Assembly: GCA_963714085.1 (NCBI GenBank)
Contig: OY970229.1
Location: 312,392 to 376,391 of the forward strand
DNA length: 64,000 nucleotides
Direction of reading: 5' to 3'
Origin: an uncultured Candidatus Micrarchaeota archaeon
Lineage (GTDB): Archaea; Micrarchaeota; Micrarchaeia; Anstonellales; Bilamarchaeaceae
In this document: positions 9,001 to 64,000 of the stretch, piece by piece
Layout: every line of letters starts with the position of its first letter
Numbering within the stretch: the first letter of the stretch is position 1
The notes under the pieces: model-generated
What the model saw: the letters and a program-made list of their open reading frames with translations, nothing else
Databases searched by the model: none
What the model was told of the DNA's origin: nothing
Program-made: the position numbers and the translations under genes

Positions 9001-9190
9001 GGGATGTCCAAGGCCTGGAAGGCCGTCGCGGTGTCGTTCGCGGTGGTTTCGTTGGTCTGGTTCAGGGAACCGTCCAAGTACAGCGAGCAGTTCATGGTAC
9101 TGGTCGCGCCCGTCGCATTGAACGTGAAGTTGACCGAGGCCGTGTTCGAGGCGTATCCTCCGGCAGGGGACATGAGGTCGACTGCCAGAG
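1..9190 (-). repeat. Gene B: in-frame tandem array of >=32 Ig-like domains (~282 nt each), running off the left edge
   Basis: It has the same unit consensus as the gene A array. The first unit (VDLMSPAGGYASNTASVNFTFNATGATSTMNCSLYLDGSLNQTNETT...) is the positional counterpart of the first gene A unit (VDLMYPPEAYLTNTTSIDFLFNATGTTPTLNCSLYIDGSLNATNETT...). 9,190 nt / 282 gives ~32.6 units. Confidence 0.8.
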
Positions 9191-18413: not shown

Positions 18414-18844
18414 GTTATGCCCTGCGAACTCATGTAGTCCTCGTCGCAGCACGAGCTGTCGTCCGAGACTACGGTTTCGTTGTTCATGTAGATGAAGCCG
18501 TTCGTGCTTATCCTTATGTGGTCGTTCTGCCTTCCGAAAAGCGTGACGTTGAAGGGGAGCGTTATGTCGTCGCTGACGCCCTCGTCCCCGTACATCGACC
18601 CCAGGACGGTCATGCCAGATACGGGCGTGAGGTCCGTGGCGGTGTTGGATGAAAGGACGCTTCCGTTCGTCCCCGCGTAGTAGGCCACGGAGCCGTTATA
18701 ATCGACAATGGTCGGGCCGAAGGACGTGATGCTGCTGGGACTGCCCGCCCCGCCCGAGAGGCCCGTGACTTTGGTGCCGTCTCCCTGGGTCGAGAGTATG
18801 TCTATCTCGATGTTCGGCGAGCCGCTGTTTGTCCTAGGGCGCCC
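17925..18844 (-). other. Gene B: NIDO-like region, split by the frameshift
   Basis: ITLPFNVTLFGRQNDHIRISTNGFIYMNNE is in the upstream frame. YLVAGVWSDLVTNGVDSNITYG ... NNTLQIKLFENGT is in the downstream frame. The region is collinear with gene A 59500-60411. Confidence 0.4.
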
Positions 18845-24751: not shown

Positions 24752-24772
24752 GCAGGTGTTACTTATACAGCA

Positions 24773-24780
24773 TTTAAAAA
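24773..24780 (-). promoter_or_regulatory. TATA-like box (minus strand TTTTTAAA) for gene B; leaderless or near-leaderless start
   Basis: The minus strand reads GCAAGAATC-TTTTTAAA-TGCTGTATAAGTAACACCTGC-ATG. The box is 22-29 nt upstream of the ATG and is preceded by purine-rich AAGAA. No GGAGG-like Shine-Dalgarno lies between the box and the ATG. Confidence 0.4.
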
Positions 24781-24867
24781 GATTCTTGCTCGCTGAGCAT
24801 GGTTTTCTTGATCAACGGGCATACGTAAACCGCATGCTGCAAGAGCGTTGAGAGGCTATGGAAAAGG

Positions 24868-24901: not shown

Positions 24902-24975
24902 GCCCTCGTAGTCTAACCTGGACAGAACGTCAGCTTGCGGAGCTGATTATCCGTGTTCAAATCACGGCGAGGGCG
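24902..24975 (+). tRNA. tRNA-Arg (anticodon GCG)
   Basis: Manual cloverleaf. The acceptor GCCCTCG (24902-24908) / CGAGGGC (24968-24974) is 7 bp and perfect. The anticodon stem is TCAGC/GCTGA with loop TTGCGGA, placing anticodon GCG at 24937-24939. The T arm is CCGTG-TTCAAAT-CACGG (24951-24967). The discriminator is G at 24975, and no CCA is encoded. Weak point: the D stem GTCT/GAAC has one C-A mismatch and one G-U pair. Confidence 0.85.
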
Positions 24976-25012: not shown

Positions 25013-28000
25013 TCAGGCCGGCGGCGGATTCTGCGGCGGGGTTGCCGGAGGCGACTGCCTCGTGTGCCAGGGTTTGCGCGGCGGCCTGCCGGCGGTGAGG
25101 AACTCGTATGCCAGGAAAGCCAGGACCATGGCCGCGGATATCAGCACCGGCATCCACCAGTAGCTCTCCAGTCCCGGGGACGGAGGCTGGACCGCGCCCT
25201 GCGCCGATGAGTTCGACGGGGGCTGGACCGCCATGTTGAGGCTTAGCGTCGTGGAGACGCCTCCGTGGGCCACGTTCACCGTGTAATAGCCGTGCAGCTG
25301 GAACGGGAGCATGGATTCGCCGTTCGCGTCCGTGGTGACCTGGGAGCTCGTCGCGTTGGGCCCGTATATCTGGAGTATGGCGTTCGCCAGCGGAAGCCCG
25401 CCCACCGTGAGCAGGATCACTCCCTCTCCGCTCGGGCCCTCGTTGGAGCCGGTGATGTTCGGGACGTCGCACGAGTTGGCCACGCAGAACTGGCCCTGGC
25501 GGCAGTCGGTGTCCGCGCAGCATTCGTATTGGTGCCAGGCATGGTTCTCGACGTAACCGCAGGAGCTCGTCACGGACTGGCAGACCCCCAGGGTCGTGTT
25601 GCAGAAGGCCGTGGACGGGCATTGCGCGTCCGCTGTGCAGTTGACCTGGGGCGAGACCGGCGGGACCACAGGCGGGGTGACGTTCGCCGGGGCCCCCGCG
25701 GCGCATGTCGTGTACGTGAAGTTGTTGATTCCGGACCTGTAGCCCTGCTTGGAGCCGTCGATCTCGTAGCTCCCGTTCGCGGCCAGGTGGAACACCGCGG
25801 TGGCGTCGCTTCCGGTCGTGGCCGAGTAAAGCGTCCCCTCGTACGGTTTCGTGAGCAGGAGCTTCACGCTCACGCCCGATGTGGACGAGGTCACGGTCAC
25901 CTCGTCGGACGGGCATGGCGCTATCACGTAGGAGAGCAGCAGCGACGGCTCGGTGTACGGCCCTGACGCGTATCCTCCGCCACCGCCTCCTCCGCCTCCC
26001 CCTCCGGATGGCGGGGGCGGGGGCGGCGCTGGAGCGGATATCGTGAAGACGTAGCCCGCCGACGAGTTCGTATTGCCGTAGATGTCGGTGCAGGTCACTA
26101 TCCAGGTGTGGCGTCCCAGCGCGACGAGCGGGCTCGTCTGGTCGGAGGAGCCGCTCACGAAGGCGTCGTCGGTGTAGTTGGGCGACCCGTCCAGGTAAAG
26201 CGAGCAGTTCATCGTGGGGGACGCGGCATCCGTCGCAGTGAAGTTGAGGTCCACGACCATGGGTGCGCTCGATGTCAGGCCGGCTCCGTTCGCAGGGCTG
26301 TTGAGCGCTATGTTCGGCAGGACCGAGCTGGAGTTGAAGCTCCTGGTCTCGCTCGTGTTCGCGTTGCCCGCGTTGTCCGTGCACGTCACGTACCAGGTGT
26401 GGTTCCCGTCGCTTATGCCGCTGACGCTGAAGACGGCCAGGGTGTTGTTCGCCGCGGGCTCGGTCTGCTTCGGGACGCCGTCGATGAAGAGCGAGCAGCT
26501 CATCGCCGAGGCGAGGTTGTCCGTCGCGGTGAAGTTGAATGCGACCGCCGCTGTGGTGAGCGACTGGTTGTACGGGGATAGGAGGCTCACGGCCGGGGCG
26601 GTCGTGTCCACGGTGAAGCTCCTGGGGATGCTCGTGCCGTTGTTGCCGGCCCCGTCGATGCAGGTGACGTTCCAGGTGTAGGCCCCCTCGCCCGTGACGT
26701 TGTAGCCCAGGGCCGTCAGGGTGTCGTTGGATGCGGTCGTGGAGTTGACTACCGCGCCGTTGATGGTGAGGTTGCATGAGGCGTTCGGGAAGAACGGGTC
26801 CGTCTCGTTGAATATGAAGTTCAATTGCGTCGACGAGCTGTTGAAGCCGTCGGCCGGGGAGACGAGGATTACGGTCGGCCCTGTGGTGGCGACCGTGAAG
26901 CCCCAAGTCGCGCTGGTGTTCGTATTGTTGGCGAAATCCTTGCAGGAGACGCTCCATGTGTGCGGGCCGCCGACCAGGTTCGCGTCGCCCATGTCAGCCG
27001 GTACATTGTTCGTAGCGGTGGTCGAGTTCACCGCGTGGCCGTCCACGGTGAGGTTGCATGATGCGGTCGGGTATACCGGGTCCGTCTCGTTGAAGCTGAA
27101 GTCTATCGAGGTCGCCGGGGTGGCGCTGTTGTTGTACGGGGAGTTGAGGCTCACGGTCGGGGCCGTGGTGACGACCGTGAAGTTCTCCGTTCCGCTCACA
27201 TTGCTGTTGTTGGCGTTGTCCGTGCAGTTGACGTACCAGGTGTGGTTCCCGTCGGCTATGCCGCTGACGTTGAAGACGGTGGCGGTGTTGTTGCTCACCG
27301 AGGAGTTGGTCCGGTTCGGGGCGTCGTCGAGGACGAGCAAGCAGCTCATCTTCTGGGCCAGGTTGTCCTGAGCCGTGAAGTTGAAGTAGACCGACGATGA
27401 ATTGAGCGTCGACAGGTTGTATGGGGAGTTGAGGCTTATGCTCGGCGGGGTGGTGTCCACCGTGAAGTTCCTCGGGAGGCTTGAGCTCGTGTTGCCGCCG
27501 TCATCCGTGCAGGAGACGTTCCAGGTGTAGGCCCCGTCGGCCGGGACGGTGTAGCCCATGGTCGTCACGGTGCTGTTGTTGGCGGTGGTGGAGTTCACCG
27601 ATGCGCCGTTGACCATGAGGCTGCACGACGCGTTCGTATAGAACAGATCCGTCATGTTGAAGGTGAAGTTCAGCGCGGTAGCCGAGGTGTTGAGGCCGCT
27701 GATTGGCGAGAGGGAGACCACGATCGGACCTCCTATGACGACCGTCAAGCTCCAGGTCGCGCTGGTGTTCGTATTGTTCGCGAAGTCGGTGCAGGACACG
27801 CTCCATGTGTGCGGGCCGGCGCTGATGCCCGAGTCTCCCAAGGTCGCCGGGGTGTTGTTCGTCGCGGTCGTGGAGTTGACCGAATGGCCGTCCACGGTGA
27901 GGTTGCATGATGCGGTCGGGTATACCGGGTCCGTCTCGTTGAAGCTGAAGCTCAGCGACGCCGCCGCGGTGACGCTGTTGTTGTACGGGGAGTTGAGGAC

Positions 28001-43000: not shown

Positions 43001-46000
43001 CGGGCTCGTGCCGCTGTTGCTGGCCGCGTCGGTGCAGGACACGCTCCAGGTGTGGAAGCCGCCGGACAGGTTCGAGCCGCCAAGGGTCGTCGGGGTGTTG
43101 TTGGTCGCCGTTGTGGTGTTGACAGTTATGCCGTCGATGGTGAGGTTGCATGAGGCGTTCGTGTAGACCGGGTCCGTCTCGTTGAATGTGAAGTTCAATG
43201 CCGTCTGCGAGGTGGTGAAGCCGTTTGTCGGCGAGTTGAGGAACACTGTCGGGGCGGTGGAGATTACGCTCAGGTTGAAGGTCTGGCTCGTTCCAGTATT
43301 GTTGGCATGGTCGGTGCACTGGACGTACCAGGTGTAGTTCCCGTCGGCCATGCCGTATACCGTGAGGACGGTCGCCGTGTGGTTGGATGCCAGGGGATTC
43401 GTGAGGTACAGGGTGTCGTCGATGAAGAGGGAGCAGCTCATCTTAGCGGCCAGGTTGTCCGTCGCCGTGAAGTTGAATGGGACCGTGGATGTGCCGGAGA
43501 TGGTCGGGGAGTTGAGGGTCACGTTCGGAGGCGTCGTGTCCACCGTGAAGTTCCTCACTGGGCTGATGCCCGTATTGCTGGCGGCATCGGTGCAGGAGAT
43601 GCTCCAGGTGTAGAATCCGTCTGCGATGGGCGAGTAGCCCATGGAAGTGGGCGTGTTGTTCGTCGCCGTGGTGTAGTTGACCGATATGCCGTTGATCGTG
43701 AGGTTGCATAAGTCGGTCGTGTAGACCGGGTCGGTCTCGTTGAAGCTGAAGTTCAGCGCCGTTCTCGAGGTGATGAGGCCGCTGGCCGGGGAATTGAGGA
43801 CCACGATTGGGGCTTGGGTCACGATCGTGAAATTCCTGGTTTGCGAGGTCCCGGTGTTGTTCCCCCCGTCGATGCAATATACGTACCAGTCGTGCTGGCC
43901 TGCGCTTATGTTCGAGACCGGGAAATCGGTCGGGGTGCCGTTCTGAGTCGTCTCGTTGGTCGCGTTCAGCGAACCGTCTATATATAATGAGCAGTTCAGG
44001 GTGGGGGTCGTGCCGGTCGCGTTGAAGAGGAAGTCGATGGAGGTCGTGTTGGTGAGGTAGGCTTCAGGCGGATACATGAGGTCGACCGTGCCCCGGATCT
44101 CGTTGTCCTGGAGTATGGCGTATGTGCCTGCCGGGGCGAGGTTGGTGAGGCCGAGCGTGTCCGCGACGGTGTCCGGGGTGCCGTTCAGCCTGGTCCAGCT
44201 CGAGCCGTCGAACTGCCAGAGCTCGAAGTCGCTGTCGTTGTATCCGCCGAGCTCGGAGTCGTTCCAGCTCCACACGATGGAGTCTATCACCGGCGAGCCG
44301 CCCGTCGTGCTGATGTCCACGAACTTCTGCGCGAAGGAGGACCGAAGGGATGGTGAGGATCCCGGGTCGCTGGCCCAGGATATGGAGTACGATTGGCCGT
44401 CCTGTATGGTGTGGTTGATGGAGAGGTTTGTGTAGTTCTCCATGTCGCCCAGCGGGTTGTCGAAGACCAGGCCAGAGAGGTTCATGGTCATCGGGTAGCC
44501 GGAGTAGTCCTGCACCAGGACATCGTGTCTGTTGTTGGAGAAGTACATGCCTTCCACGGACGTGTTGTCGGAATTCACTATCATGAGGCCTTCAGCGAGA
44601 TTACCGAATACACTGTTGTTAGTGAAGTTATCGTAGTCCGAGACGCTCTCGACAATGATACCATATCCGCCGTTGCCATAGACACTGTTGCCGCTCGCCG
44701 TGTTATTGCTCGCGTCGGTCTCGAGGTGTAGGCCGTCCCCTGCGTTGCCATAAAGCGTATTGTTGATTATCTGGTTGAAGTGCGAAACGTATCCGAGCTG
44801 GAGGCCGTTCGAGGCGCCGCCATATATCGTGTTGTTGATGAATGTGTTGTTGTCGCAATATCCCCACGCGCGTATGCCGATATCCCGGCTTCCGTTCACC
44901 ACATTGCCCGATATCAGGTTATTGCTGTTGCCCATCTGGATGCCCCAGTAGTTTCCGGAGAGCGTGTTGTCCGTTATATTGTTGTAAGAGGCCGAGTTGC
45001 CCATAGCGATGCCGCTCAGGTTGTCGTCATATGCCGTGTTGTTCGTGACATTGTTGTAGCTCGAGCTGTCCGTGATGAGGATGCCGGCGTCAGAGCTTTC
45101 GTATACCACGTTGTTCGACAGCGTGTTGCCGTTGCTGTCGGAGAGCTCGATGTCCCTGTAGTTCCCGTAGACCGTGCTGCCCGTGATGCTGTTGTTGGAG
45201 TTCAACTGGAGCAGGATGCCGTCCCCGCTGTTGTTGTACGCCGTGCTGTTGACGACCAGGCTGTAGTCGCAGTCCTGCCCTATCGCGAGGCCGGCCTGCG
45301 AATCGCCGTTGTAGAACGTGTCGTTGATGAATTCGCCCCCGTCCGAATCGTACCACTCGTTGACGCCGGCCAGCGCGTCCCCGTATGCCACGTCGTTAGA
45401 TACGAGGGTGTTGTCCGTGTCCGAGAACAGTGCGGCGCCGTATTGGCCCGCGCCGGAGAGCGTGTCGTCCGAGATGGTGTCGTTGAGGCCTGAATCCAGC
45501 TCTATGTCTGCCAGGCTGCTGTCGAGGATCGTGCTGTTCGTTATGGTGGAATACTGGAGCGACAATCCCCTGATCCCGTACGTGTAGTTCGCGATGCCCG
45601 GGCAGTTCTGTATAGTGACATTCGTGAGCGAGGGATCGAGGCCGATGCCGTAGGTGGTGCCGTTCAGGCCGTCGTTGGCTATGCTGTAGCCGCCGCAGTC
45701 GTAGACCACGTTTGACGAGGCGATCTTGACACATGCCATGCCAGGGCTCGGCATCTCAGATGCGTCGTTCGGGGCGCCGAAGTAGTCGGAAGGCTGGACG
45801 TAGGTCCCGGGCTCGGTTATGATTTGGCAGTTGGTGACGTTGAAGGTCACGTTCCTCGCTTCGGTGCAGTTCTCGTTGCCGTTGTTGTCCGTCGCGCAGC
45901 CTTGATAGGCGTAGGTGTGCTCTCCGCTCTGCGACGAACCGGACTGGTTGATGGAGAACTGCCATTCGTTGGTGTCGTACTTGTTCAGGTTGGACTCGTA

Positions 46001-49000
46001 GAGCTGCTGGATCTCCGAGGGCGAGAGGGCGCGGTCGTAGACGCGGACCTCGTCTATGGAGCCGTTGAAGTACCTGAAGGGGGTGTTGGCAGCGCTCAGC
46101 TCATTGCCGATTGTGAGGTTGTCTTGCGGCGTATGGGGCGTGGCCGTGCTTGTTCCCGGTGTCTGGATGCCGTTCACATAGAAATGTGTCGTCCCGCCGT
46201 TCCTTGTCATTACGACGTAGTACCATTGGTCTGCTGAAGGGAACGTATAGCCGGAGTCGATACCCGCGACGTAGCCGTACAGCCCTTCCAGCTGGCTCCC
46301 ATTTATTATTCCGATCCCGTACCCTCCCAGATCATTTCCGTTGTATAAGACGAGCTGGTGGTCTGCTCCTTGATTTAGCTCCGGCTTTATCCAGGCCGAG
46401 AGGGTCCAGTCGTCTATTGCGCTCGTGGCACTGCTCGGGGCGAGGAGATAATCGCTGATCCCGTCGAACTGGTATGCGCCGCCGTACACTCCGTTGGGGA
46501 TCCATGTGGGGCAGTCCGGGTCGCTGCACGTGGCGTTGTTGCCGTACTGGCTCAGGTCGGTCACCTGGCTGCCGTTCTCGCCCAGGGCGGAGACGTTGTC
46601 GAAGTTGTACATCAGCACGAGGCTCTCGTCATACGGTGTGTAGTCCGTGCCGTTCCAGTCGTATGTGAAGACGCCCAATGGGAACGTGGTCTCATTCACG
46701 CTGATGTTTATCGGTATCGTGGAGTTGGACGTGACCGTGCCGGTGTCAGGGGTCGGCGGGCTGAATGCGATGAGCGGCGGCGGTGCCACGATCCCGTTCT
46801 GGAGTATTCCGTAGTCGCCTCCCGGGCTCAGGCCGCTCATGCCGAGCGTCTCCGCGACTGTGTCCGGGGTGTCGTTCACCATGGTCCAGCCCGATTCGTT
46901 GAACTCCCAGAGGCTGAACTTGGTCGGGTCGTATCCTGCGGAGCCGTTCCAGCTCCATACGATGGAGTCGATGGACGGCGAACCTTCCAGTGTGGAGATG
47001 TTCACGAACTTCCCCGCGAATGGATGGTAGCCTGCAGGGTGGGATCCTGGGTCGCTGGTCCAGTTCACGGAGTATCCATCTCCATACTCGACGCTGTCGT
47101 TTATGGATAACGTGGTGTAGTCCGCCATGTTGCCCAGCGGGTTGTCGAAGACCATGCCTGACAGGTTTATCGTGTTGGGGAAACCGATATTGTCGCGCAC
47201 CGTCAGGTCGGGGTTGTTGTCGGAGAAGTACATGCCCTGCACCGAGGTGTTGTCGGAGCCATCTATCCACAAGCCGGACATGTTGTTGCCGAACACGCTG
47301 TTGCCGACCAGGGTATTGTCGCCGCCCCCGCCGACGTGTATCCCGCTTTGGTTGTTACCGGACGCGTCGTCGTAGAGCAGGGTGTTGTTGTACCCGCCGA
47401 TGTAGAAGCCTTCGTATGTGTTGCCGGACGCGTTGTCGTAGAGCAGGGTGTTGTTGTCCCCGCCGATGTCGAAGCCGCTCGCATAGTTGTAATTGCCGGA
47501 GGCTGTGCTGCCGGTGATGTTGTTATCCGATCCGTACATCAGGAAGCCGTAGTCGCGGTTATCGCTCGCGTTGATCCCGGAGAACTGCGTTTGCGATATA
47601 CCGTATATGTAGAGGCCGACGTCACGGTCGTTGGTGGCGGTATCGTTGACGAAGCTGGAGTTAGAGACAGAATACAGGACGAAGGTGGCATCGCCATCAC
47701 CAGTGCCGGAATCGTTGGTGGAATTGAATGCGTTTACGTCACCTAGGTCAAAGCTTATCCAGTCGTTGTTCGCGACGTCGTTTAGGGACGTGACATTGTC
47801 GCTTGATTCTATCTCGAATCCTATGGAGTCGTTGTTTGCGGCATCGTTGAGGTATGTGGCGTTGTCGCTTTGTTCCGTATCGAAGCCCAGGTGATTGTAG
47901 GATGAGGAGACATTGGCGACTGTGGTGCCGTTGCTGTAGTACAGTATGAGTCCGTCGTTGTTGAGGGTGTCGGAGCCGTTGACCACGCTGTTCGTGATAC
48001 TAGAGCCGGTCGCATTGCAAAGTTCAATCTCGGCGGTGTCCTGCCCGTCCAATGAAACGGGTTCATCGGAGTAATATATCTGGCGGCCGTCCGAGCTGGT
48101 CGTATCCGTGATGTTGTTCTGGCAGTCGTCCGGGGAATTCGGGTACACGTAGAGGTCGTACTGCCCGTTTTCCATGGCGGTGTTGTTGTACAAGGTATTC
48201 TGGCTGGACCCGGTGAGCGAGATGCCATAGTAGCTGTTGTTGTCGAAGCTATTGTTGGACATGGTATTGTTGTACGACGACTCAAACTGGGCGCCGTCGT
48301 TACGGCTGTTTTCGATGTCATTGCCGGAGATGTCGCTGTCGCTCAATGAACCATAGATGCCGTATCCGTTGCCGACCAGGGTATTGCCGGAGATTTCGTC
48401 GCCGCTCGATGTGGGGAGATAGATGCCCTCGTCGGAGGCGTTGTAGATGCCATTGCCGTATAGGCCTTCGTTGTTGGAATTCTCGATATCGAAACCCGCC
48501 CAGCTGCTGCCGTATATGGTGTTGCCGGTGAAGTTGTTGTAATCCGAGCCGCTTAGGACCACGAAGCCTGCGTATCCCTCGTCAGAGAGATTGTTGTCAG
48601 ATAGCAGGTTATCGCTGCTTGCGCTGAGCTGGATGCCAGAATAGTCCCGGGTGAGGGTATCGTTCGTGAGGTTGTTGTCAGAGCCGCCGTTGAGCATGAT
48701 GCCGGCCGAGCCGGACGGGCCGCTGCCCGACACCGTGCTGTTGATTATGGCCGAATCGGTGTCGGACTCGGCCCAGAGCCCGTAAGTGTAGCCGGAGATT
48801 TGGCAGTTCTGGACCGTCACGTTGTCTAGCGACGAGTCGATGGCGATGCCGTAGGTCGTGCCGACGATGCCCACGTTCGTGATATTGTGGCCCTGGCAGT
48901 CGAAGACCACGTTTGGCGAGGATATCTTGATGCACGTGTTCCCCCCGTCCGGCATCTCCGAGGCGTCATATGGCGCGCCGACATAGTCGTTCGGCATGTT

Positions 49001-52000
49001 GTAGTAGCCCGGGGAGGTTATCTCCTGGCAGTTGGTGGTGTTGAAGGTGACGCTCCTCGTCTCGGTGCAGTTCTCGTTCGCGTTGTCGTCCGTCGCGCAT
49101 GCGTAATAGGTGTAGTTGTATTCCCCGCTCACCAACGGGCTCGGAGCCTGGTTGATGGAGAACTGCCATTGGCCGGTAGCGTACTTGTCGAGGTTGGACT
49201 TGTAGGACTGCTGGACCTCGGATGGCGAGAGGGCGCGGCCGTAGATGCGGACCTCGTCCATTGAGCCGTTGAAGAATTCGCTTGGCTGTGCCCCGTCAGC
49301 GCCTATGAAGAGATTGTTCTGCGGATTTATGGTTCCCGAGAGGGAGCCATTCATATCGAGCAGCCCATTGACATAGGTGTTCACGTATGCCCCGTCGTAG
49401 GTGAGAACGACGTAATTCCATTGGCCCGCGTTGAGTTTGATATTTCCGTCATCGGAGAGACCGCCCGCGTTTGTCCAGATATATATTTCCAGTCTGCCGT
49501 CGCTCGATGGAGCGAATCTTAGGATGTAGGCGCCGTTGTTTTTCACTATCTCCCCGTAATCCCCAAAGCTCGAGGGCTTGACCCATGCGGCGATGGTCAT
49601 CTGGCTGGCCAGCGTTGGAGCGGTCGGAACCGAGAGGTACTCACTCATCCCGTCGAAGGCGTAGGCGCCGCCGTACACTCCGTCCGAAGTCCAGGTCGGG
49701 CAGGTGCCGGGGGCGCAGGTGGCGTTGTCGCCGTACAAGCTCAGGTCCTCGACCGAATTCGGAGCGAGAGCGGAGGAGTCGTTGAAACCGTAGTACAGGA
49801 CGAGCCCGTCCGTATCCGGGAAGTTGAAATTATAGAGGTCGTTCACCTGGCTCGGGGAGAGCGTGTAGTTGTAGATGCGGAGGTCGTCTATGGCGCCCGT
49901 CCAGTAGTTCGCCGGGTAGAAATTCTGGCCGATGTTTGCGGTCCCTGAAGCGAGGTCCCAGACCACGGGCGTGGGACCAGCGACGAGCGTCCCGTTCTCG
50001 TATATCTCTGCGTTGGCCCCGTCATAGGCCAGGCACATGTGCTCCCATTCGTTCTGGACGAAGAAGTCCGGGACGGCCATGACGTCCCCGCCCCATGATT
50101 CGATGGTCAGGTTCGTCCCGCTCCTGATGATGCGGAGCGTGGAGTTCCCGTAGTTCATGGGGCCCATGGTGAGCGCGACCACACCAGGCGGGCTCACGTC
50201 CGACGCATTGAGCCACATGCAGATTGTCCTTGCCGCGGTGCCGCTCGGGATCGGGGGGTTCGTCGTATTCGTATCGAAGCTCAATACCCCTCCGTTGAAA
50301 ACGTAGGCGCCCCCTTGGACGCCGTCCGGGGTCCATGTGGGGCAGGAGCCGCTGCATATGGCGTCGTTGCCGTTCCCGCTATCGTCGGCCACGCTCCGGC
50401 CGAAGGCGGAGGAGTCGTTGAAATCGTAGTACAGGGCGAGCCCGCTGGTGTTGGTGAAACTGCCACTGTAGAGGTCGCTCACCTGGCTCGGGGAGAACGC
50501 GTAGTTGTAGACGCGCAGGTCGTCGATGCTTCCGTTGAAATTGTCCGTGATGCCATAGTAGTCCAAGGCGCCGACAAAATAGGAGTTGCTGGAGCCGAAG
50601 ATGTCCGTATAGTTTCGCGTTCCTGCCGGGACTCCGTCTATATAGAAATCCGCCTCCGAGCCGTTATACGTGACTGCGACGTGGTGCCACCCGGAGGTGT
50701 CTGTGAGAGTGCCTGTGGAGGCGACATCACTAATACCGACATGGGTAAGATGCAGGTTCCCACTTGAATCGAAGAACACCGCCCAGCCGCCGTAATCGCC
50801 CCCGAATATCGCCTGGGTGTTGCCTATGCTGTCCCTCTTGACCCAGGCGCTGAACGTGAAGGGGATGCTATCGAAGTTGTGGTTGGTATTCAGGTAGTCC
50901 TGCACGCCGTCGAACTGGTACGCGCCGCCGGATTTCCCGTTCGGCGTCCACGTCGGGCAGGAACCCGGAACGCATGCGGCATTGTGCCCGTTCCCGCTCT
51001 CGTCGGCCACGCCGTTGTGGAGGGTCCCGGAGGAGTTATCGAAGGAGTACATGAGCATGAGGCTGCTGTCGTAAGGCGTGAAGTCCGTGCCGTTCCAATC
51101 GTAGGTGAACTGGCCGAGCGGGTACGTGGTCTCGTTCACGCTGACGTTTATCGGTATGGTCAGGTTGGACGTGGTTATGCCGCTGTCAGGGGTCGGCGGG
51201 CTGAACGCGATGGCCGGCGGAGGCGCCGCGAGCCCGTTCTGGAGTATGGCATAGACACCTCCCGGGCTCAGGCCGCTCATGCCGAGCGTGTCTCCGACCG
51301 TGTCCGGGGTGTTGTTCACCGTGGTCCAGCCCGATTCGTTGAACTCCCAGAGCTGGAACTTGGTCGGGTCGTATCCTGCGGAGCCGTTCCAGCTCCAGAC
51401 GATGGAATCTATGGATGTCGGAGTACTGCCTTGTTGGGAGATGTTCACGAACCTCTGCGCGAACGAGTAGCGGCCTGGTGGAAGGGCGGCCGGGCTGCCG
51501 GACCAGTTCACGGCGTATTGTTCGCCGTCATTCACCGTGTCGTTGATGGAGAGGTTGGTGTAGTTCTCCATGCCGCCCAGCGGGTTGTCGAAGATGATGC
51601 CGGAGAGGTTGATTGCGAGCGGGGCGCCGAAATCATCTTGCACCTGCAGGTCGTTGCCATTGTCGAAGAGGTGCATGCCCTGCACGGAGCTGTTGTCGGA
51701 GTCGCGTATCAGCAAGCCGGAATAGGAGCTGTTGAATGAAGTGTCGTTGAGCAGGACGTCGTTGGGTTGCCGGTTTACGAGGAAACCTTGCTGGCCATTG
51801 CCGGACGTGACATCATTGGTGAAATTATTCGAGTCTCCCGAGTATATAAGGAAACCAGCATAGAGATTGTCGGACGAGGAGACGTCTATGACGTTGTCCG
51901 ATTGCGAACCGTCCGCAGTGAAGCCGTTTTGGCTGTTGGTCACGTTGATTCCGGAAAAGAGGCTTTGCGTGGTCTCCATCGAATCGAAGCCCCAGGCCGC

Positions 52001-55000
52001 ACCGCTTGCGGTATCGTCGACGAAGCTGGAGTTGGAGACGCGGTATGTAGCGAAACCATCCAGGTAATCACCGGTGACACCGATGGCAGAATCGTTGGTG
52101 AAATTGGCTCCGTTTGAATTTTCGATCCAGAACCCGTAATAACCATAATTGGTAGTGATGTCGTTATCTACGACGTCGTTGAGGCATGTGGCGTTGTCGC
52201 TCCATTCTATGTAGAAGCCGCCGTTGCTATCGTTGTCCGCGACATCGTTGGTGTATGTGGCCGCGTCGCTCCAGTATATGTCGAAGCCATGATAATTGTA
52301 AGACGAAGAGGTATTGGCGACCGTGGTGCCGTTGCTGTAGTACATTATGAGTCCGTCGTTGTTGAGGGTGTCGGAGCCGTTGACCATGCTGTTCGTGACG
52401 TTCGAGCCGCTCGCGCCGCAAAGCTCTATCTCGGCCGCGTCATAGCCGTCCCATGAGACCGGGTCGCTGGAATAATATATCTGGCGGCCGTCCGAGCTGG
52501 CCGTATCCGTGATGCTGTTCTGGCAGTCGTCCGGGGAAGTCGGCACCACGTCAAGATCATACTGCCTGTTCTCCATGGCAGTGTTGTTGTACAGGGTGTT
52601 CTGGCTCGACACGGTCATGTAGATGCCGGAGTTGCCGTTGTTGTCGAAGTCATTGCCATAGACGATAGTGTTGTTGGATGCTGAGGCCAGGATGATGCCG
52701 TACTGCCCATTGTCGGAGGCGTTGTTGTTGTACACGCTGTTGTTGTCGGACGACTCTATATCGATGCCGGCCACACCGTTGTTGTCGGCGGTGTTGTTGG
52801 AGAGCTGGCTGAAACTGGCGTAGTTCAGGTAAAAGCCGTCATTGGAATTGTTGAATGCGATGTTCTGGGTGAGATTGGTCCCGTTCACGGGATAGTTGTT
52901 GTCCTGGACTAAGTAGAAACCGTTCCCGTTGCTATAGGCGGTATTGCCGCTCACCGTGCCGTTGTCCGCCGCATACTCGAAATAGATGCCGGCGCCGCCG
53001 TTGCCGTAGGCTGTGTTGTTGACCAGTTGGTTGAAGGTGCAATGGTCCCCGATTCCAAAGCCCCATGCGCTATTGCCATATGCGGTGTTGTTGATGAACG
53101 TGTTGTCGTCCGCGCTCCACCACGCGACGACGCCCCCTTCCGCGTTCCTATATGCCACATTGCTTGATACAGTGTCGTAGTCGTCTCCGGCCAACCGCAT
53201 GCCATCGTTGCCGTTCCCATAGAGCGTATTGTCTGTGACATTGTTGTTGGAGCCGCCGTCCAGGAAGAGCCCATACCAGTGGTTGCCGAACGCCGTGACG
53301 TTCGTTATGGTCGAATAGCTGACGAACTGCGTCTTGACTCCGAATGTGTAGTCCGAGATGCCCGGGCAGTTCCGTATGGTCACGTTCGTGAGCGAGGGGA
53401 CCGCCGCGATGCCGTAGGTGACGCCGCTCACACCGGTGTTGGTTATGTGATAGCCCGCGCAGTCGAACACCACGTCGGACGAGTTTATCTTCACGCAGGC
53501 CATGGCACTGCCATCTAGCATCTCCGAGGCGTCGTTCGGCGCGCCCGTGTAGTCGTTCGTCATGGAATACGAGCCCGGCGAGGTTATGACCGGGCAGTTG
53601 GTGGCGTTGAAGCTCACGCTCCTCGTCTCGGTGCAGTTCTCGTTGCCGTTGTTGTCCGTCGCGCAGGCCTGGTAGGTGTAGTTGTACTCGCCGCTCGGCA
53701 GACCGGTGGGGCCCTGGTTGGCGGAGAACTGCCACTGGCCCGGAGCGTATTTGTACAGGTTCGACTCGTAGAGATCCTGGACTTCCGAAGGCGAGAGGGC
53801 GCGGTCGTAGACGCGGACCTCGTCTATGGAGCCGTTGAAGTACCAGTAGGCCCAGCCCCAATCCTCATATACCTGCCGCCCGATGTACAAGGGACTATCA
53901 GCGGTCGTGAATGCATACGGCTGGGATACGAGGAAGGCGCCATCGCCATACAGGAGCACATCCGTACCGTTGTACTCGGCTACGACGTGGTGCCATAGGC
54001 CATCGTTCACCTTGAAGGATGTGGAGACGTCGGATTCATATCCTACGAGATAAAGATCGCCCGGACCTGCGACCGAAACTTCCAGATCGAATGCGTTGCC
54101 CTGACCAACGCTGCCCCAGCCAGCCAGACTCTGTCTGCCCGTGCCCGTGGTTTTCACCCAAAGGGAAAGGGTTCTTGGGCTGGAACCGGTTATCCCGACG
54201 TCATTGGAGCTTGAAAGATAATCGCCTATGCCGTCGAACGAATAGGCGCCGCCGTACCTGCCGTCAGACGTCCATGCCGGGCAGGAGCCGAAGGCGCACG
54301 TGGCATTGTCGCCGTACAAGCTCACGTCCTCAATCGAATTCGGAGCGAGAGCGGAGGAGTCGTTGAAATCGTAATAAAGGACGAGCCCGCTGGTGTCGGT
54401 GAAATTGCCGCTGTAGACGTCGTTCACCTGGTCCGCGGAGAGCGAGTAGTTGTAGACGCGGACGCCGCTTATGGAGCCGTTCCAGTGCCAGTTGAGGTCA
54501 CCGGACAACCCCACGAAAGCGTTTCCGATCTGGACGTTCCAGCTTTCAGGAGTGGGGGGCGTGATGTTCTGGCCGTCCGAATAGACTTCGGCGTCGGTCC
54601 CGTTGTATGTGAGGCAGATATGCGTCCAATTGTTCGAGCCGACGTCACACCAGTAGTTCGTGACAAATATCTCGGACCCGGTCTGGCCCACTCCGAGATC
54701 GCAGTTTTCCCAGCGTTTGCCCATCCATATGCCCGAGGAAGTATACCAGTCACCATAGGATATGATTGGCTGTACGTCGTCCACGGCGCTCGTGTCGGTG
54801 TCGTTCGCCCACGCGCACACCGTGAACGGAGCGCTGCCGGATGGAAGGACGCCAGGATTGCTGATGTTCAGGAAGTCATCCGCTCCGTCGAACTGGTATG
54901 CGCCGCCATACGCTCCGTTGGGGGTCCACGTCGGGCAGTTCACGCCCGGGGTGCACGTGGCGCTGTTGCCGTTACCGCTCTCATCGGCCACGTTCGGACC

Positions 55001-58000
55001 AAAGGCGGAGGAGTCGTTGAAATCGTAATAGAGGACGAGCCCGCTGGTGTTGGTGAAACTGCCGCTGTAAAGGTCGTTCACCTGGTCCGGGGAGAGCGAG
55101 TAGTTGTAGACACGGACATCGTCTATCGCGCCGTTCCAGCCCCAGTAATTGTCATTAGAGGTTCCCACGTAAGCAACGCCTGGCTGCGTGTTCCAGCTCT
55201 CCGGTGTCGGGCCGACGGCCACCTGGCCATCCACGTAGAGCGTCTCGTCCGTGCCGTTATACGTGATGCAGATGTGCTTCCACACGTGGGTGCCGACACT
55301 GGTCCAGAAACCAGGTATCTCCAGGGAACCGGTTTGTTCGCCGGCGTCTAAATTGTCGGCATAGCCGCTGAAACCCAGGCTGTTGTCGCCGTTTCCATAG
55401 GTCAGTACGGTCCCGGATGATCCGAGCTGGTATATGTTGGCCCAGGCGCACATCGTGACCGGGGCGCTGCCCATCGGAAGATTGGCGGCGTTGCTGAAAT
55501 CCAGGTGCTCGTTGTTTTGGAAATAATAGGCGCCTCCGTACACCCCGTCCGGGGTCCACGCCGGGCAGGTCGAGCCCGGGGTGCATATGGCGTTGTTGCC
55601 GTTCCCGCTCTCATCGGCCACGCCGTTGTGGATAATCCCGGAGAAGTTGTCGAAGTTGTACATCAGCACGAGGCTGCTGTCATACGGCGTGAATACCGTG
55701 CCGTTCCAGTCGAAGGTGAACCGGCCGAGCGGGAATGTCGTCTCGTTTATGCTGATGTTTATGGGTATCGTGGAGTTGGACGTGACCGTGCCGGTGTCAG
55801 GGGTCGGCGGGCCGAATGCGATGGCCGGCGGCGGAGCCACGATCCCGCTCTGGAGTATGGCATAGGTGATCGTATTACCTGGCTGGGGAGCGAGGTTCGT
55901 GAGGCCTAGCGTGTCCCCGACCGTGTCCGGGGTGTTGTTCAGCATGATCCAGTTAGAGCCGTCGAACTGCCATAGCTGGAACCTGGCGTCATAGTATCCG
56001 CCGAGTTCGGAGGGGCTCCAGCTCCAGACGATGGAGTCTATGGAAGGCGAGCCGCCCAGCATGGAGATGTTCACGAACTTCTGCGCGAATGGGCGGTAGC
56101 CTGCCGAAATGGATCCGGGGTTGCTGGCCCAGCTTATGGAATACGACTCTCCTGCGTTGAAGGTGTCGTTTATCGCGAGCGTGGTGTAGTTCTGCATCCC
56201 GCCCAGCGGGTTGTCGAAGACCAGGCCGGAGAGGTTCATTGTGAACGTAAAGCCGGCGGGCTGGACCCAGAAGTCGGGAGTATTGTTGGAGAAGTACATG
56301 CCCTCCACGGACGTGTTGTCGGAATCATATATTGTAAGGCCGGCGTTCGAGTTATTGGATGCGGTATTGTTGGCGAAGATGGTCCCTTCCACCGGACTCC
56401 CGTCCGCCATCGAGGAGAAGCCGTACTGGTTGCCAGAGGCGACATTGCCGCTTAGCGTGTTATTGTCCGAGGAGTCCGTGAAATAGAAGCCGCTTCCGGT
56501 GTTGTCATCTGCCGTGTTGTTGATAAGCTGGTTGAAATCGCAACCGCCATCCATCACGATGCCGCGCATGCCGTTGTCGTCCGCCGTGTTGTTGATGACC
56601 GTGTTGTTGCTCGAGGACAGCCATAGGAATACACCGGCTCCCGACGAGGTTCCAGACGCCGTGTTGTCCGATATCACGTTACCGGTGTCTTCGACTATGA
56701 AGAAGCCGGCGTTCACGTTTCCGGACACATTGTTGGCAGAGAGCAGGTTGTCGTTGCTGCCGGAGAGATAGATGGCGTTGTAGTTTCCGTAGGCCGTGTC
56801 GTTCGTGACGTTACTGTCCGAGCAGCTGTTGAGCTCGATGCCGTTTCCGCTGTTGTCGTAGGCGACGTTGCCGCTTAGCGTGTTATCGCTTGCGCCGCTA
56901 TCCAGGTGGAAGCCATCATTGGAGTTGTTGAATGCGATGTTGTTGGTGAGATTTGTCCAGGTCACCGGGTCGGAGTAGCCGGTGGTCAGGTAGAAACCGT
57001 TCACATTGCCATAGGCGGTATTGCCGCTCACCGTGCAGTTGTCCGACCCGTCCTCGAAATAGAAGCCGTAGTTGCCGTTGCCATAAGCCGTGTTGTCGAT
57101 CAGCTGGTTCAGGACGGAACCGCCTCCGAACTCGAAGCCGCCCTCGCTGTTGTTGTACGCGGTGTTGTTGGTGACTGTGTTGTTGTCCGCGCCCCACCAC
57201 GCGTTTAGGCCGCGCGAGTTCGCGTACAGCACGTTGCCGGATATCAGGTTGTCATCGGCTCCGGAGGCGAGGAAGATGCCTATGTCGTTTCCGTAGGCCG
57301 TAACGTTCGTGACGTTGTTGTCCGAGCCGCCGTGCAGTTCGATGCCGTTCGAGCCGCTCAGCATCGTGCTGCCGGTTATGGCCGAATCGGTGTCGGACTC
57401 CGCCCAGACCCCGTACGAGTAGCCGGACATCTGGCAGTTCTGGACCGTGACGTTGCTGAGCGATGAATCGATGACGATGCCGTAGGTGGTGCCTCCGGTG
57501 CCGTCGTTCGTGATGTTGTGGCCGTTGCAGTCGAACACCACGTCGGATGATGTTATCTTCACGCAGGCCGTGCCGGGATATATCATGTCGGAGGCGTCGT
57601 TCGGGGCGCCCAGGTAATCACCCGCCATGACGTACGAGCCAGGGGAGGTTATCGGCTGACAGTTGGAGATGTTGAAGGTCACGCTCCTTGTTTCAGTGCA
57701 GTTCTCGTATCCATGCGTGTCCAGCGCGCAGCCCTGGTAGGTGTAATTGGGTGTCCCCCTCAGGACGTCCGGGGGCTGGTTGATGGTGAACTGCCATTGG
57801 GTGGAGTTGTACTTGGCGAGGTTGGACTCGTAGAGCTCCTTTATCTCGGCGCCGGACAGGGAGCGGTTGTAGACCCTGACTTCGTCCATTTTTCCATTGA
57901 AGTATTCCCCCCACGCGGGATTGCCTCCCAGAACGAGTTTGAATGGCGAGTCCTGCCCGCTCACCGGGTATGGTCCGTAGGATACCCCGTTCTTATAGAA

Positions 58001-61000
58001 TGTCACGTCGGACTGGGTGTAGACCGCGGCCACCTGCTGCCACTGGTCCAGGCCCACCGGAGCGGTCTGCTGCGAATAGCCGAAGAATCCGCCGGCGGTC
58101 CCTACGTACACCGACCAATTGGCTGTCCCCTCTTCTACCAGGATCTCGCGGCCATGGTTGCCGTCATCGTCGCTGAACACGGTCTGCCGCGACCCGGTGT
58201 TCACTACGGTGGGGTAGACCCATGCCACGAATGTCATGTCCGGCATCGCCGAGGGCTGGATGTCCAGATTGGTGCTCATACGGTCGTTGCCCAAAAAGTC
58301 GCCGCCGTTGCCGTCGAACACGTATGCGGCGCCGTACTTCCCTTCAGGTGTCCAGTCCGGGCAGGAGCCGGGGCTGCAGGTGGCGTTGTCGCCGTACATG
58401 CTCTCGTCCGGAATCATGACCGAATTCCTCGGGGCGGAGGAGTCGTTGAAATCGTAATGCAGGATCAGCCCGTCCGTGTCCGGGAAGTTGGCGTTGTATA
58501 AGTCGCTCACCTGGCTTGGGGAGAGCGAATAGTTGTAGACGCGCAGGTCGTCCATGTAACCGTTGAAAAAATAGCCGCCGCCGGCCCACGCGCCGACCAG
58601 ATAGTCGCCCGTGGAGCTGAAGTTGTCGGTATAAGGCACGGTCCCTGCCGGGATTCCGTCTATATAGAAGTCCGCGTCGGAGCCGTCGTCCGTGACTACG
58701 ATGTGATGCCACAGGGTGTCCGGGATGCTGGCGTTTGAAACGATATGGTCAATACCTATCTTGGTGAGTTGCACCGTGCCGTCACCGCCGATGACCACCC
58801 CCCACCCGTTAGTGTTTCCGCCCATGAGTATTCCTTGGTCGCCGCTTAAACCGACCCTCTTCACCCATGCGCTTACAGTGAATGGATAAGTGCCGAAATT
58901 GGTGTGGGTGTCGAGATAATTGGTGCCGTCGAATGAATATGCGCCGCCGTATACTCCGTTGGGGGTCCATGTCGGGCAGGAGCCGGGGGCGCATGTCGGG
59001 TTGGGCGCGTTATTGAAGTCGTACATCGCCACCAGGTCCGGATTGTACAGCGTGTCGTTACGTGGTGGCAAGCTTGCGCAGGTCAGGTTCAGGTAGCTCG
59101 GCTTGGGTACGTAGGGGCTGCAGTCCGTCTCGCCGCATACACCGCCTTCTTCGATAGTAAGGCCGTACCTGACCGAGCACGAGCTGGCCCCCAGGGTGCA
59201 GTTCCCGCAAGGCACGCCGGCCCCTCCGCCGCATGCGGTGCCGATCCCCCATAACGATGAATACGAGGATATCGCGCTCCCTACGGGGCAGGTCAGCGAG
59301 AGGGTGTCGGCTTCGCCGCCGCTTTCGGAGATGGTGGTGATGGAGGGTGGGCCCGCGGTTCCGTTCCAGTCATAGATGAACGAGCCCAGCGGGTAGGTCG
59401 TCTCGTTCACGCTGATGTTTATGAGTATAGTCGGATTGAACGTGACCGTGGCGTCAGCAGGGGTCGGAGGGCTGAAGGCTATCTCCGGCAGCAGCACGGA
59501 GCCGAGGATGCCGAACTCGCTCCCGAAATCTGTGATGTTGGCGAACACGTAGCCGTCGATGCTGTCCTGTCCGTACGGTGACGAGAAGTCCGCGGGGTTC
59601 GTGTCCCATCCGCTCGCGTCGTATCTGGCCATGGAGAGCGGGCTCCCGAGGCGCAGGGCGTCCGCCGGGGTGTAGCTCAGGTTGAGGAAAAGGTAGGAGT
59701 CCGGAGCGTTGGCTGTCGCCTCCACGAACCTGCCGGAGGTGGCCAGGCCGTACGGGTCCGGGGCGGTGCTGGCGACCGAGCCCCCGGAACCGTTCTCGAA
59801 GAGCTTTATCTCGAATGTGTTGTTCCCGAACGTGTCGAAGCCGTCGTATTGCGCGTTGTGGTCGTAGGATATGATGAACACGCGGTTCGGTGAGACGCCC
59901 GCGGTCCCGTACGTGATGGTGCCGTTCACGCCGTCGGAGACGAGGTCGGTCCACAGCCCTGCGACCAGGTAGTCCCCATCCTGGGTTATGCCCTGCGAGC
60001 TCATGTAGTCCTCCTCGCAGCATGCGCTCTCATCCGAGGTTACGGACTCGTTGCTCAGGTAGATGAATCCGTTGGTGCTTATCTTGATGTGGCTGTTGGA
60101 CCTCCCGAAGAGCACCACGTTGAACGGTAGCGTTATGTCGTCGCTCACGGCCTCGTCGCCGTACATCGACCCCATGGGAGTGTCTATGGGCGTGATGGTG
60201 GTGGGGACGAAGGACGGGATCATGCTTCCGTTCGTTTCCTGGTAGTAGGCCACGGAACCTGCATAGCCAACCGTGGTCGGGCCGAAGGACGTGATGCTTT
60301 TCGGGCCTCCCGTGCCGTCGGATATGCCCGTGACCTTGTCGTTGCTGCCGTCGCTCGATAGTATGTCTATCTCGACGCTCCGGGAGCCGCTGATCTGCTG
60401 CGGCCGCCCGGACTCCCCGACGTTCACGTCCTTAGAATCGAAGGACACCCGGTCGTTGCCCATGGTCATGTTGTCTACGATGTTGCCCATGGAATCCGAG
60501 GTCGAGGAAAAGGCCCAGATGGAGTTGCCCGACGCGTTCCAGCCGCTGAAAACGTTGTCCTGCGAGGAATCGAGGAAGATACCCACGCTGTCGTTGGACG
60601 TCGCGCCGTTGGTGAAGCTGTCGTTGTCGGACTGATAGGCATAGACTCCGTAGCTGTAGTCCGATATCCCGGGGCAGTTCTGCACCGTGACGTTGGTGAG
60701 CGGACCGTCGAGCAGGATCGCGTAGGTGGGGCCGGCCATGGCGTTGTTGGTTATGTTGTAGCCGTCGCAGTCGAAGAGCACGTTGGATGCGGTTATCTCC
60801 ACGCACGCCGCGCCGCCGTCCGGCATCATCGAGGCGTCGTTCGACGCACCGAAGAAATCGTTCGTCATGTTGAATACGCCGCTCGTGCTTATCACCGGGC
60901 AGGGCTGGAAGCGCTCGAGTATTCCGTAGGTGCCAACCGGGTTGAGGTTCGTGAGGCTGAGCGTATCCGTGAATGTGTTGAGCGCCGCGCTGGCATTGCT

Positions 61001-64000: not shown

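Follow-up and report, generated by a model that had tools for sequence, protein, structure and literature searches.

Reading frame of gene A

What kind of protein does a single 39-kb reading frame encode, and how might a cell use it? This question is raised by a 64,000-nucleotide stretch of contig OY970229.1 (hereafter, the window), which as a whole consists of two giant genes, gene A and its neighbouring paralogue B/C, both on the minus strand. The analysis revealed that gene A is a real gene. We consider it reasonably probable that its product is an archaeal membrane glycoprotein of giant size and type I, single-pass topology, projecting from the cell surface as a fibre in which a spacer carries lectin-like distal modules. 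The initial annotation of this DNA had proposed a fibrillar adhesin of stalk-and-head design and had listed its architecture item by item; the modules, their counts, their order, the hinge, and the transmembrane helix were recovered, and the labels NIDO-like and SUEL-like for two distal domains proved to be weaker.

25013 to 64000, minus strand: gene A, an open frame of 12,995 codons plus a stop codon, with the N-terminal part cut off at the window's right edge

The minus-strand frame of gene A is free of stop codons from 25016 to 64000 (12,995 codons) and closes with a stop codon at 25013-25015. The probability of a stop-free frame of this length arising by chance, calculated from the base composition, is approximately 1e-167. 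No upstream stop was found in the window before the first listed start codon; thus, the frame runs off the window and the N-terminus of the protein is missing, a truncation on which the initial annotation was silent. All residue numbers given for gene A start at the window edge. The visible polypeptide has a mass of 1.37 MDa and a pI of approximately 4.05, and it is composed of approximately 12% each of T, S, and N, with K and R together accounting for only 1.8%. On the opposite strand, the region from 50768 to 63934 (plus strand) contains several stop-free stretches of 316-525 codons (for example, 60362-61936), which are probably shadow frames of GC-rich coding DNA.

A stalk of 64 immunoglobulin-like units

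The second half of gene A is dominated by one tandem array of immunoglobulin (Ig)-like units.

26024 to 44113, minus strand: stalk of 64 tandem Big_13 Ig-like units (unit, 282 nt; super-repeat, 846 nt, equal to three units), identified through Pfam, a hidden Markov model (HMM) built from gene A itself, and identity by lag

Pfam Big_13 matched this half of the protein with E-values of 1e-97 and 5e-101. The HMM counted exactly 64 units between residues 6630 and 12659, with a period of approximately 94 residues, and the earlier figure of approximately 64 Ig-like domains is thereby made exact. Identity between units was approximately 60% at lags of 3, 6, 9, and so on, compared with approximately 42% between adjacent units. 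At the DNA level, copies spaced by 282 and 846 nt were mostly 60-83% identical, which argues against an assembly collapse of the array. Units 16-19 and 22-25 were 90-96% identical to each other; this similarity appears to indicate a recent duplication of six units and marks the sole place where the unit count could be misassembled.

Two cysteines were retained in 64 of the 64 units, and each unit carried approximately 7.3 N-x-S/T sequons. Sequons in gene A numbered 769 in all, twice the number expected from shuffled sequences (z = 14 and 25). This density fits an archaeal N-glycoprotein, and we infer that N-glycosylation would be heavy.

The nearest solved relative of the Ig unit was Salmonella SiiE BIg50-52 (2yn3/2yn5; E = 1.4e-5), with which it shares a D-A-(A/G)-N motif; 2YN5 has been identified as a SiiE BIg structure (PMC5466336). 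Sequence comparison thus places the units of gene A as homologues of the BIg stalk domains of SiiE. The 53 BIg domains of SiiE form a rod of 175±5 nm, and BIg deletion lowers adhesion (PMC6272769). With the SiiE value of 3.3 nm per unit, 64 units would extend approximately 210 nm. With approximately 4 nm per unit, which is a titin-type value, the estimate rises to approximately 260 nm. The reach of approximately 250 nm suggested in the initial annotation is therefore reasonable.

The C-terminal hinge, anchor module, and membrane helix

25973 to 26026, minus strand: hinge PPPPPP-S-G11 (residues 12659-12676), identified as an exact sequence
25166 to 25960, minus strand: membrane-proximal anchor module, identified through domain search and paralogue alignment
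25016 to 25156, minus strand: transmembrane helix (25088-25156) followed by a basic, Pro-rich tail of 24 residues predicted to be cytoplasmic, identified through hydropathy

The array ends in the hinge that had been described as Pro6/Gly11, and both the PPPPPP string and the run of 11 glycines are exact. The anchor module then comprises, in order, a CarboxypepD_reg-like domain, a Pro-rich linker, a Cys-rich knot with 10 invariant cysteines, a second CarboxypepD_reg-like domain, and a Pro-rich segment, and it leads into the transmembrane helix and the basic tail. The only hydrophobic peak of gene A that reached 2.0 was located at residues 12952-12970 and is followed by TAGRPPRKPWHTRQ. After the helix, gene A reads RPPRKPWHTRQ, and its paralogues end in RKWRNGKNKKK. 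A single C-terminal transmembrane helix with a basic tail, together with the signal peptide of the paralogous gene B, fits a predicted type I membrane protein. The claim that the protein is anchored by its C-terminus is thus borne out by the helix and its tail, and also by the occurrence of the same anchor module in stalk-less paralogues.

One anchor module with stalks of different length

The anchor module is conserved in the library proteins P0003 (2,237 aa), P0005 (1,784 aa), P0002, P0004, and P0007, with E-values from 1e-59 to 1e-148. P0003 and P0005 are reported on a contig equal in length to that of genes B and C and are therefore probably derived from the same contig or genome. In P0002-P0005 and P0007, beta-helix modules and a NIDO-like domain are set directly on the anchor, and the number of Ig units is 0-2. 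A signal peptide was present in P0003, P0004, P0005, and P0007, and the N-terminus of P0002 was not hydrophobic. Because the same anchor occurs in these stalk-less paralogues and in the genes with 35 units (the neighbouring B/C) and 64 units (gene A), the Ig array can be regarded as an inserted spacer. It thus seems that the genome encodes stalks of graded length (0, 35, and 64 Ig units) on a common anchor, and that reach would follow from stalk length. These graded lengths are the strongest internal support for interpreting the array as a stalk. The stalk-and-head logic of the initial annotation therefore holds on two counts, namely the homology of the Ig units to SiiE BIg domains and the anchor shared with stalk-less paralogues.

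Scanning metagenomes with the anchor alignment retrieved only short-stalk relatives (L003-L005), and a scan of Joint Genome Institute (JGI) metagenomes, a set that does not include the source contig, yielded no match to residues 1-300 of gene A. Stalk-less forms of 1.8-2.9 thousand residues (P0003, P0005, and L002-L005) were observed with the same anchor and a beta-helix/NIDO-like ectodomain, and relatives are present in the JGI samples 3300035696 and Ga0326728. A word-indexed protein search with the NIDO/SUEL region and with the anchor module gave no match in a collection that contains the 83%-identical paralogue P0001, and this negative carries no weight as to rarity; very long proteins may lie outside the range of such an index.

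Among species-representative genomes, the window itself did not appear and the sole match was L001, a 5,132-aa protein of a Candidatus Micrarchaeota metagenome-assembled genome. It shares beta-helix/LamG super-repeats with gene A at 35-49% identity over 700-1,100 residues, and it has a signal peptide and no Ig array. The organism is probably a Micrarchaeota/DPANN-type archaeon, a lead provided by this best homologue. P0002 lies on a 500-kb contig beside genes for aEF-1beta and S13-S4-S11-RpoD, and these neighbours identify that contig as archaeal.

Domain map of the distal part

Distal to the stalk, the features of gene A are arranged as follows, from the N-terminal to the C-terminal side.

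60431 to 64000, minus strand: N-terminal block of four parallel beta-helix modules (residues 1-1190; the first is partial), identified through Pfam Beta_helix/NosD, self-similarity, and landmarks
59774 to 60391, minus strand: NIDO-like all-beta domain (residues 1204-1409), identified through 446 relatives, Pfam NIDO matches in 2 of 27 copies, and an AlphaFold2 model
59336 to 59485, minus strand: segment "IAFSPPTP...DWNGT", N-terminal to the SUEL-like domain
59066 to 59335, minus strand: SUEL-like (rhamnose-binding-lectin-like) Cys-rich domain (residues 1556-1645), likely identity from alignment, profile searches, AlphaFold2, and Foldseek
57842 to 58897, minus strand: LamG_3 domains 1-2, identified through Pfam and the gene A HMM
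55823 to 57673, minus strand: beta-helix module 5 (617 aa), identified through Pfam, module alignment, and PDB sequence search
53780 to 55477, minus strand: LamG_3 domains 3-5, identified through Pfam and the gene A HMM
51212 to 53608, minus strand: beta-helix module 6 (799 aa), identified through Pfam, module alignment, and PDB sequence search
49214 to 50875, minus strand: LamG_3 domains 6-8, identified through Pfam and the gene A HMM
46772 to 49042, minus strand: beta-helix module 7 (757 aa), identified through Pfam and module alignment
46010 to 46426, minus strand: LamG_3 domain 9, identified through Pfam and the gene A HMM
44081 to 45841, minus strand: beta-helix module 8 (587 aa), identified through Pfam and module alignment

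In the first 5,000 residues, Pfam reported Laminin_G_3 (9.5e-162), Beta_helix (1e-116), and NosD (6e-115). HMMs built from gene A itself located exactly nine LamG copies in a 2-3-3-1 arrangement, beginning at residues 1702 and 1916; 2842, 3053, and 3270; 4376, 4585, and 4795; and 5859. Self-comparison and landmark motifs distinguished eight beta-helix modules, four within residues 1-1190 and four between or after the LamG groups (residues 2110-2726, 3465-4263, 4987-5743, and 6054-6640). A conserved beta-rich domain ("FAQKFVNIS...SIDSIVWSW") follows every beta-helix module except the fourth N-terminal one. Both the minimum of four N-terminal beta-helix modules and the alternation of two, three, three, and one LamG domains with beta-helices had been predicted and were confirmed. 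The distal head is not a compact tip but a long succession of segments exceeding 6,600 residues.

A PDB search with the LamG domains retrieved, as the nearest solved relatives, the S-layer-domain protein 4qvs (6e-17), the accessory domain of the arabinanase AbnA, neurexin LNS domains, pentraxins, and tetanus toxin Hc, all of which, as far as is known, are binding modules. These profile matches argue strongly for membership in the LamG/LNS fold.

The NIDO-like and SUEL-like domains

Residues 1190-1700 of gene A had no Pfam match even at E = 10, and PDB sequence searches with this NIDO/SUEL region and with the alignment of the NIDO-like family gave no match either. When 1.84 billion representative proteins were searched with a profile, 446 relatives of the region emerged. 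Pfam NIDO (PF06119) matched 2 of the 27 aligned copies of the approximately 200-residue NIDO-like domain, with a best E-value of 3.5e-5. The copies share the motifs "LPF.V..FGR...I.ISSNGFIYL" and "AG.W.DL...G.I.YG..G.APNRVF.V.F.NVS...G.TFQIKLFE", which resemble those of NIDO domains. AlphaFold2 produced a confident all-beta model of the domain, with a predicted local distance difference test (pLDDT) score of 91 and a predicted template modelling score of 0.89. A Foldseek search of the PDB with this model returned no significant neighbour (best E = 0.064; template modelling (TM)-score < 0.3). The NIDO-like label is thus supported indirectly, through relatives. The NIDO-like family was observed to comprise hundreds of proteins, in which the domain often stands directly after a signal peptide, and most members have no matching Pfam model.

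In the SUEL-like domain, seven cysteines were invariant among the seven aligned copies. SUEL_Lectin (Pfam PF02140) matched one of the seven (E = 0.64, insignificant), and a PDB profile search with these copies retrieved the rhamnose-binding lectin (RBL) domain of latrophilin (E = 1.3) and the rhamnose-binding lectin SUL-I (E = 2.6), both insignificant. The RBL motifs YGR, DPC, and KYL were partly retained as (W/Y)G, (G/T)DC, and KPxYL. The best Foldseek matches of the AlphaFold2 model (pLDDT 81) were LAT-1, latrophilin lectin domains, SUL-I, and CSL3, with a probability of 0.8-0.99, a TM-score of 0.42-0.53, and E-values of 0.02-0.4. Three weak but concordant lines make a SUEL-like identity likely. 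A further protein, P0088 (358 aa), has an archaeal class III pilin-type signal peptide and carries two SUEL-like Cys-rich domains, and the SUEL-like domain is thus also present on putative pilin-like proteins.

The assignment of a NIDO-like segment followed by a SUEL-like segment is accordingly less secure than the rest of the map: the NIDO label has indirect support through 2 of 27 relatives and not through the copy in the window, which has no Pfam match, and the SUEL label is likely through a model nearest to RBLs and not through sequence matches, which were insignificant. The structural modelling that the initial annotation had proposed gave a similarly divided result, with no significant PDB neighbour for the NIDO-like model and latrophilin/RBL domains, at weak E-values, as the nearest neighbours of the SUEL-like model.

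The neighbouring gene B/C and the intergenic spacer

18371 to 24751, minus strand: gene B (2,126 aa), with a signal peptide, five LamG domains, a beta-helix region (three profile matches), and the first part of a NIDO-like domain, identified as an open reading frame with Pfam/profile matches
1 to 18410, minus strand: gene C, the continuation of gene B in another frame, with the remainder of the NIDO-like domain, a SUEL-like domain, five LamG domains, beta-helices, and 33 Ig units in the window; it runs off the left end
24902 to 24975, plus strand: tRNA-Arg(GCG) in the 261 nt that separate genes A and B, identified through Rfam (54.6 bits)

Gene B, immediately downstream of gene A, begins with the signal peptide MHRRGNVTFVALLLALLFSLACVPLSHA and is identical to the library protein P0006. 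It stops at the point where its homologue gene A reads "GITQDGDYLVAG"; the sequence then carries on as "GSDYLVAG..." in another frame, which has no stop codon between 18695 and base 3. The split is explained by one missing C at 18411-18412 (ACC-[C]AG-GGT), that is, by an apparent frameshift of 1 nt, which may be genuine or a homopolymer error. Gene C is identical over 6,127 residues to P0001 (6,703 aa), which extends 575 residues past the window and ends in a hinge and an anchor module like those of gene A, with a nearly identical transmembrane helix and tail. After repair, B/C comprises 8,826 residues and 35 Ig units. The two giant genes occupy at least 4.2% of the source contig (1,571,539 bp), from which P0001 and P0006 derive.

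Upstream of gene B, a TTTTTAAAT element begins 29 nt before the ATG (24760-24790, minus strand); it resembles an archaeal TATA box and may be placed for a leaderless transcript. With respect to the tRNA in the spacer, tRNA genes often flank genomic islands. A LamG locus of Candidatus Mancarchaeum acidiphilum Mia14 has been reported on a genomic island (PMC5498576).

Proposed mode of action and alternative explanations

With regard to the elements of a fibrillar adhesin, a tandem stalk array (64 Big_13 units) and a cell-surface anchor (the C-terminal transmembrane helix) are present in gene A; nine LamG_3 domains and the SUEL-like domain, which have lectin-type folds and are putative binding modules, lie distal to the stalk; and, the N-terminus of gene A being outside the window, signal peptides were seen in its paralogue gene B and in the homologue L001p. 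On this basis, we propose that the protein would be exported by the Sec pathway through an N-terminal signal like that of the paralogous gene B and would be heavily N-glycosylated. The Ig array would then act as a rigid spacer of approximately 0.2-0.3 µm, holding multivalent lectin-like modules off the cell, where their ligands could be glycans of a partner cell, a host cell, or a surface. Structural or binding rods, and not enzymes, would be the role of the beta-helices, and the number of Ig units on the shared anchor (0, 35, or 64) would determine the reach. Most likely, the gene A protein would bind glycans at a distance.

Weighing against this interpretation, the neighbouring paralogue B/C is frameshifted, and hence at least one member of the family may be decaying or the assembly may contain indel errors. 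In addition, a rigid Ig array is an assumption modelled on SiiE, in which rigidity depends on Ca2+.

An alternative explanation is that the protein is a protective or structural component of the envelope, such as a glycocalyx, canopy, or sheath resembling halomucin or an S-layer-associated protein, and not a partner adhesin. The extreme sequon density, the share of the contig devoted to the two genes, and the S-layer-domain protein that is the nearest solved relative of the LamG domains would all suit such a role, and archaeal S-layer proteins with beta-helix and PKD domains exist according to work cited in PMC5498576. However, a single transmembrane anchor bearing a hinged stalk of approximately 200 nm is unlike lattice-forming proteins, a shared anchor with stalks of graded length suits reach more than coating, and the lectin-like SUEL and LamG modules are located at the distal end. 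We therefore regard an envelope component as unlikely, albeit worth keeping in mind.

A second alternative is a fibre that degrades or modifies polysaccharides, in which the beta-helices would be active lyases, hydrolases, or epimerases and the LamG domains would be carbohydrate-binding modules for targeting. The beta-helices of gene A appear from their sequences to belong to the PbH1-repeat beta-helix group, and the PDB proteins related to them in sequence comprise, among others, the mannuronan C5-epimerases AlgG and AlgE (approximately 1e-7). The relatives of the LamG domains include the arabinanase accessory domain, and a beta-helix combined with a carbohydrate-binding module is a common enzyme layout. 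However, the best PDB match of the beta-helices was NosD (6e-8), which is not known as an enzyme. The epimerase motif DPH(D/E) and the NTD, GHG, and RIK motifs of glycoside hydrolase family 28 (GH28) were absent from the beta-helix modules, and of two G.DD strings, one of which lies inside a beta-helix module, neither was conserved. In an alignment of five modules, whole coils had been gained and lost, and the coil body contained no invariant D, E, K, R, or H; pectate-lyase residues were judged only by this absence of an invariant K or R in the sequence alignment. K, R, and H together contributed only 6-14 residues to each beta-helix body of 417-636 residues.

The initial annotation had suggested polysaccharide binding or cleavage and had pointed to catalytic Asp/Lys/Arg constellations as the feature to look for. 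No such residue is invariant in the coil body of the five aligned beta-helix modules, and cleavage by these modules finds no backing in the missing epimerase and GH28 motifs or in the coil residues. Catalysis of the types checked is thus not supported by the alignment, a binding role or a purely structural role as a rod seems more likely for the beta-helices, and we consider an enzymatic fibre improbable.

That gene A is a relic without function, or an artefact of assembling repetitive DNA, is scarcely credible: the 1-nt split of the adjacent paralogue and the nearly identical units 16-19 and 22-25, where the count could be misassembled, would be compatible with it, but the 39-kb frame is stop-free, the repeats have mostly diverged to 60-83% DNA identity, the cysteines are invariant in all 64 units, the sequons are enriched, and genes B and C match database proteins exactly.

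Comparison with known systems

In common with SiiE and with the giant non-fimbrial type 1 secretion system (T1SS) adhesins MpIBP and LapA, gene A has a long tandem rod of BIg type that would present a distal binding region, putative in gene A. SiiE uses a C-terminal signal for type 1 secretion and stays attached only transiently, whereas gene A has a C-terminal transmembrane anchor and is probably exported by Sec; it adds an archaeal-type sequon density and, at the distal end, more than 6,600 residues. Staphylococcus aureus Ebh, similar to gene A, carries a giant repetitive ectodomain on a C-terminal transmembrane segment, and it is bacterial and composed of other repeat types.

Several known classes were considered for gene A and rejected. 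An RTX/T1SS adhesin was ruled out because the GGxGxD (RTX) motif is absent and the C-terminus is a transmembrane helix; an LPXTG anchor, because the motif is absent; and an archaeosortase substrate of the PGF-CTERM type, because the C-terminal 355 residues contain no NCBIfam match and no PGF/PEF motif. A SPEARE-type ATPase protein was ruled out because only 24 residues follow the single transmembrane helix and Pfam detects no ATPase. A beta-helix carbohydrate-active enzyme was rejected on the absence of the epimerase and GH28 motifs checked and of an invariant charged residue in the coil body.

The SPEARE giant proteins of Nanohaloarchaeota, such as SVXNc_0300 (9,409 aa), are likewise giant membrane-bound ectoproteins of DPANN type with a signal peptide (predicted for gene A), Ig-like domains, and a proposed role in host contact (PMC10266531). 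They end in a cytosolic VirB4/TraG-like ATPase and carry WD40-like beta-propellers, whereas gene A has one transmembrane helix, a 24-residue tail, no ATPase, and a head of beta-helices and LamG_3 domains. SVXNc_0300 is the largest protein reported in cultivated archaea (PMC10266531), and the visible part of gene A, at least 12,995 residues, is longer. Few archaeal proteins of more than 10,000 residues have been reported (10.1101/2023.11.21.568195).

A survey of huge archaeal proteins found Laminin_G_3 in almost all of those with at least 5,000 residues and CarboxypepD_reg plus Big_13 as the second common class, with a function described as "not understood" (PMC11573180). Gene A uses the same Pfam vocabulary and combines both sets; the survey gives domain content only. 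Mia14, which belongs to the same putative phylum (Micrarchaeota), has LamG-like jelly-roll surface proteins for which host interaction has been proposed (PMC5498576); the likeness is by description, and neither a 64-unit Ig stalk nor a protein of approximately 13,000 residues is described for it. More generally, host contact has been put forward as the role of the giant surface proteins and LamG expansions of DPANN archaea (PMC10266531, PMC5498576). Gene A is an unusually large addition to these known giant archaeal LamG/Ig surface proteins. New here are the anatomy of anchor, stalk, and head, the SiiE homology of the stalk, the graded stalk lengths on one anchor, and two poorly known distal domains, one of which, the NIDO-like family, is confidently modelled without a solved structural neighbour in the PDB search.

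Implications for the biology of ultrasmall archaea

Little is understood of how ultrasmall archaea of the DPANN type locate their hosts and keep hold of them. As a tentative possibility, an archaeon with a small genome and perhaps an episymbiotic lifestyle may spend at least 4% of that genome on length-graded surface "fishing lines" (a conserved anchor with 0, 35, or 64 Ig units), the longest with a reach of approximately one cell diameter, and may catch host or partner cells by recognizing glycans multivalently with a head that includes a NIDO-like fold and an archaeal SUEL-type lectin. If this is true, the 64-unit form would rank among the largest archaeal proteins recorded; gene A extends the size range beyond the 9,409 residues reported for cultivated archaea. 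With its defined anchor, a spacer whose length varies among paralogues, and a modular lectin-like distal end, the locus provides a testable model.

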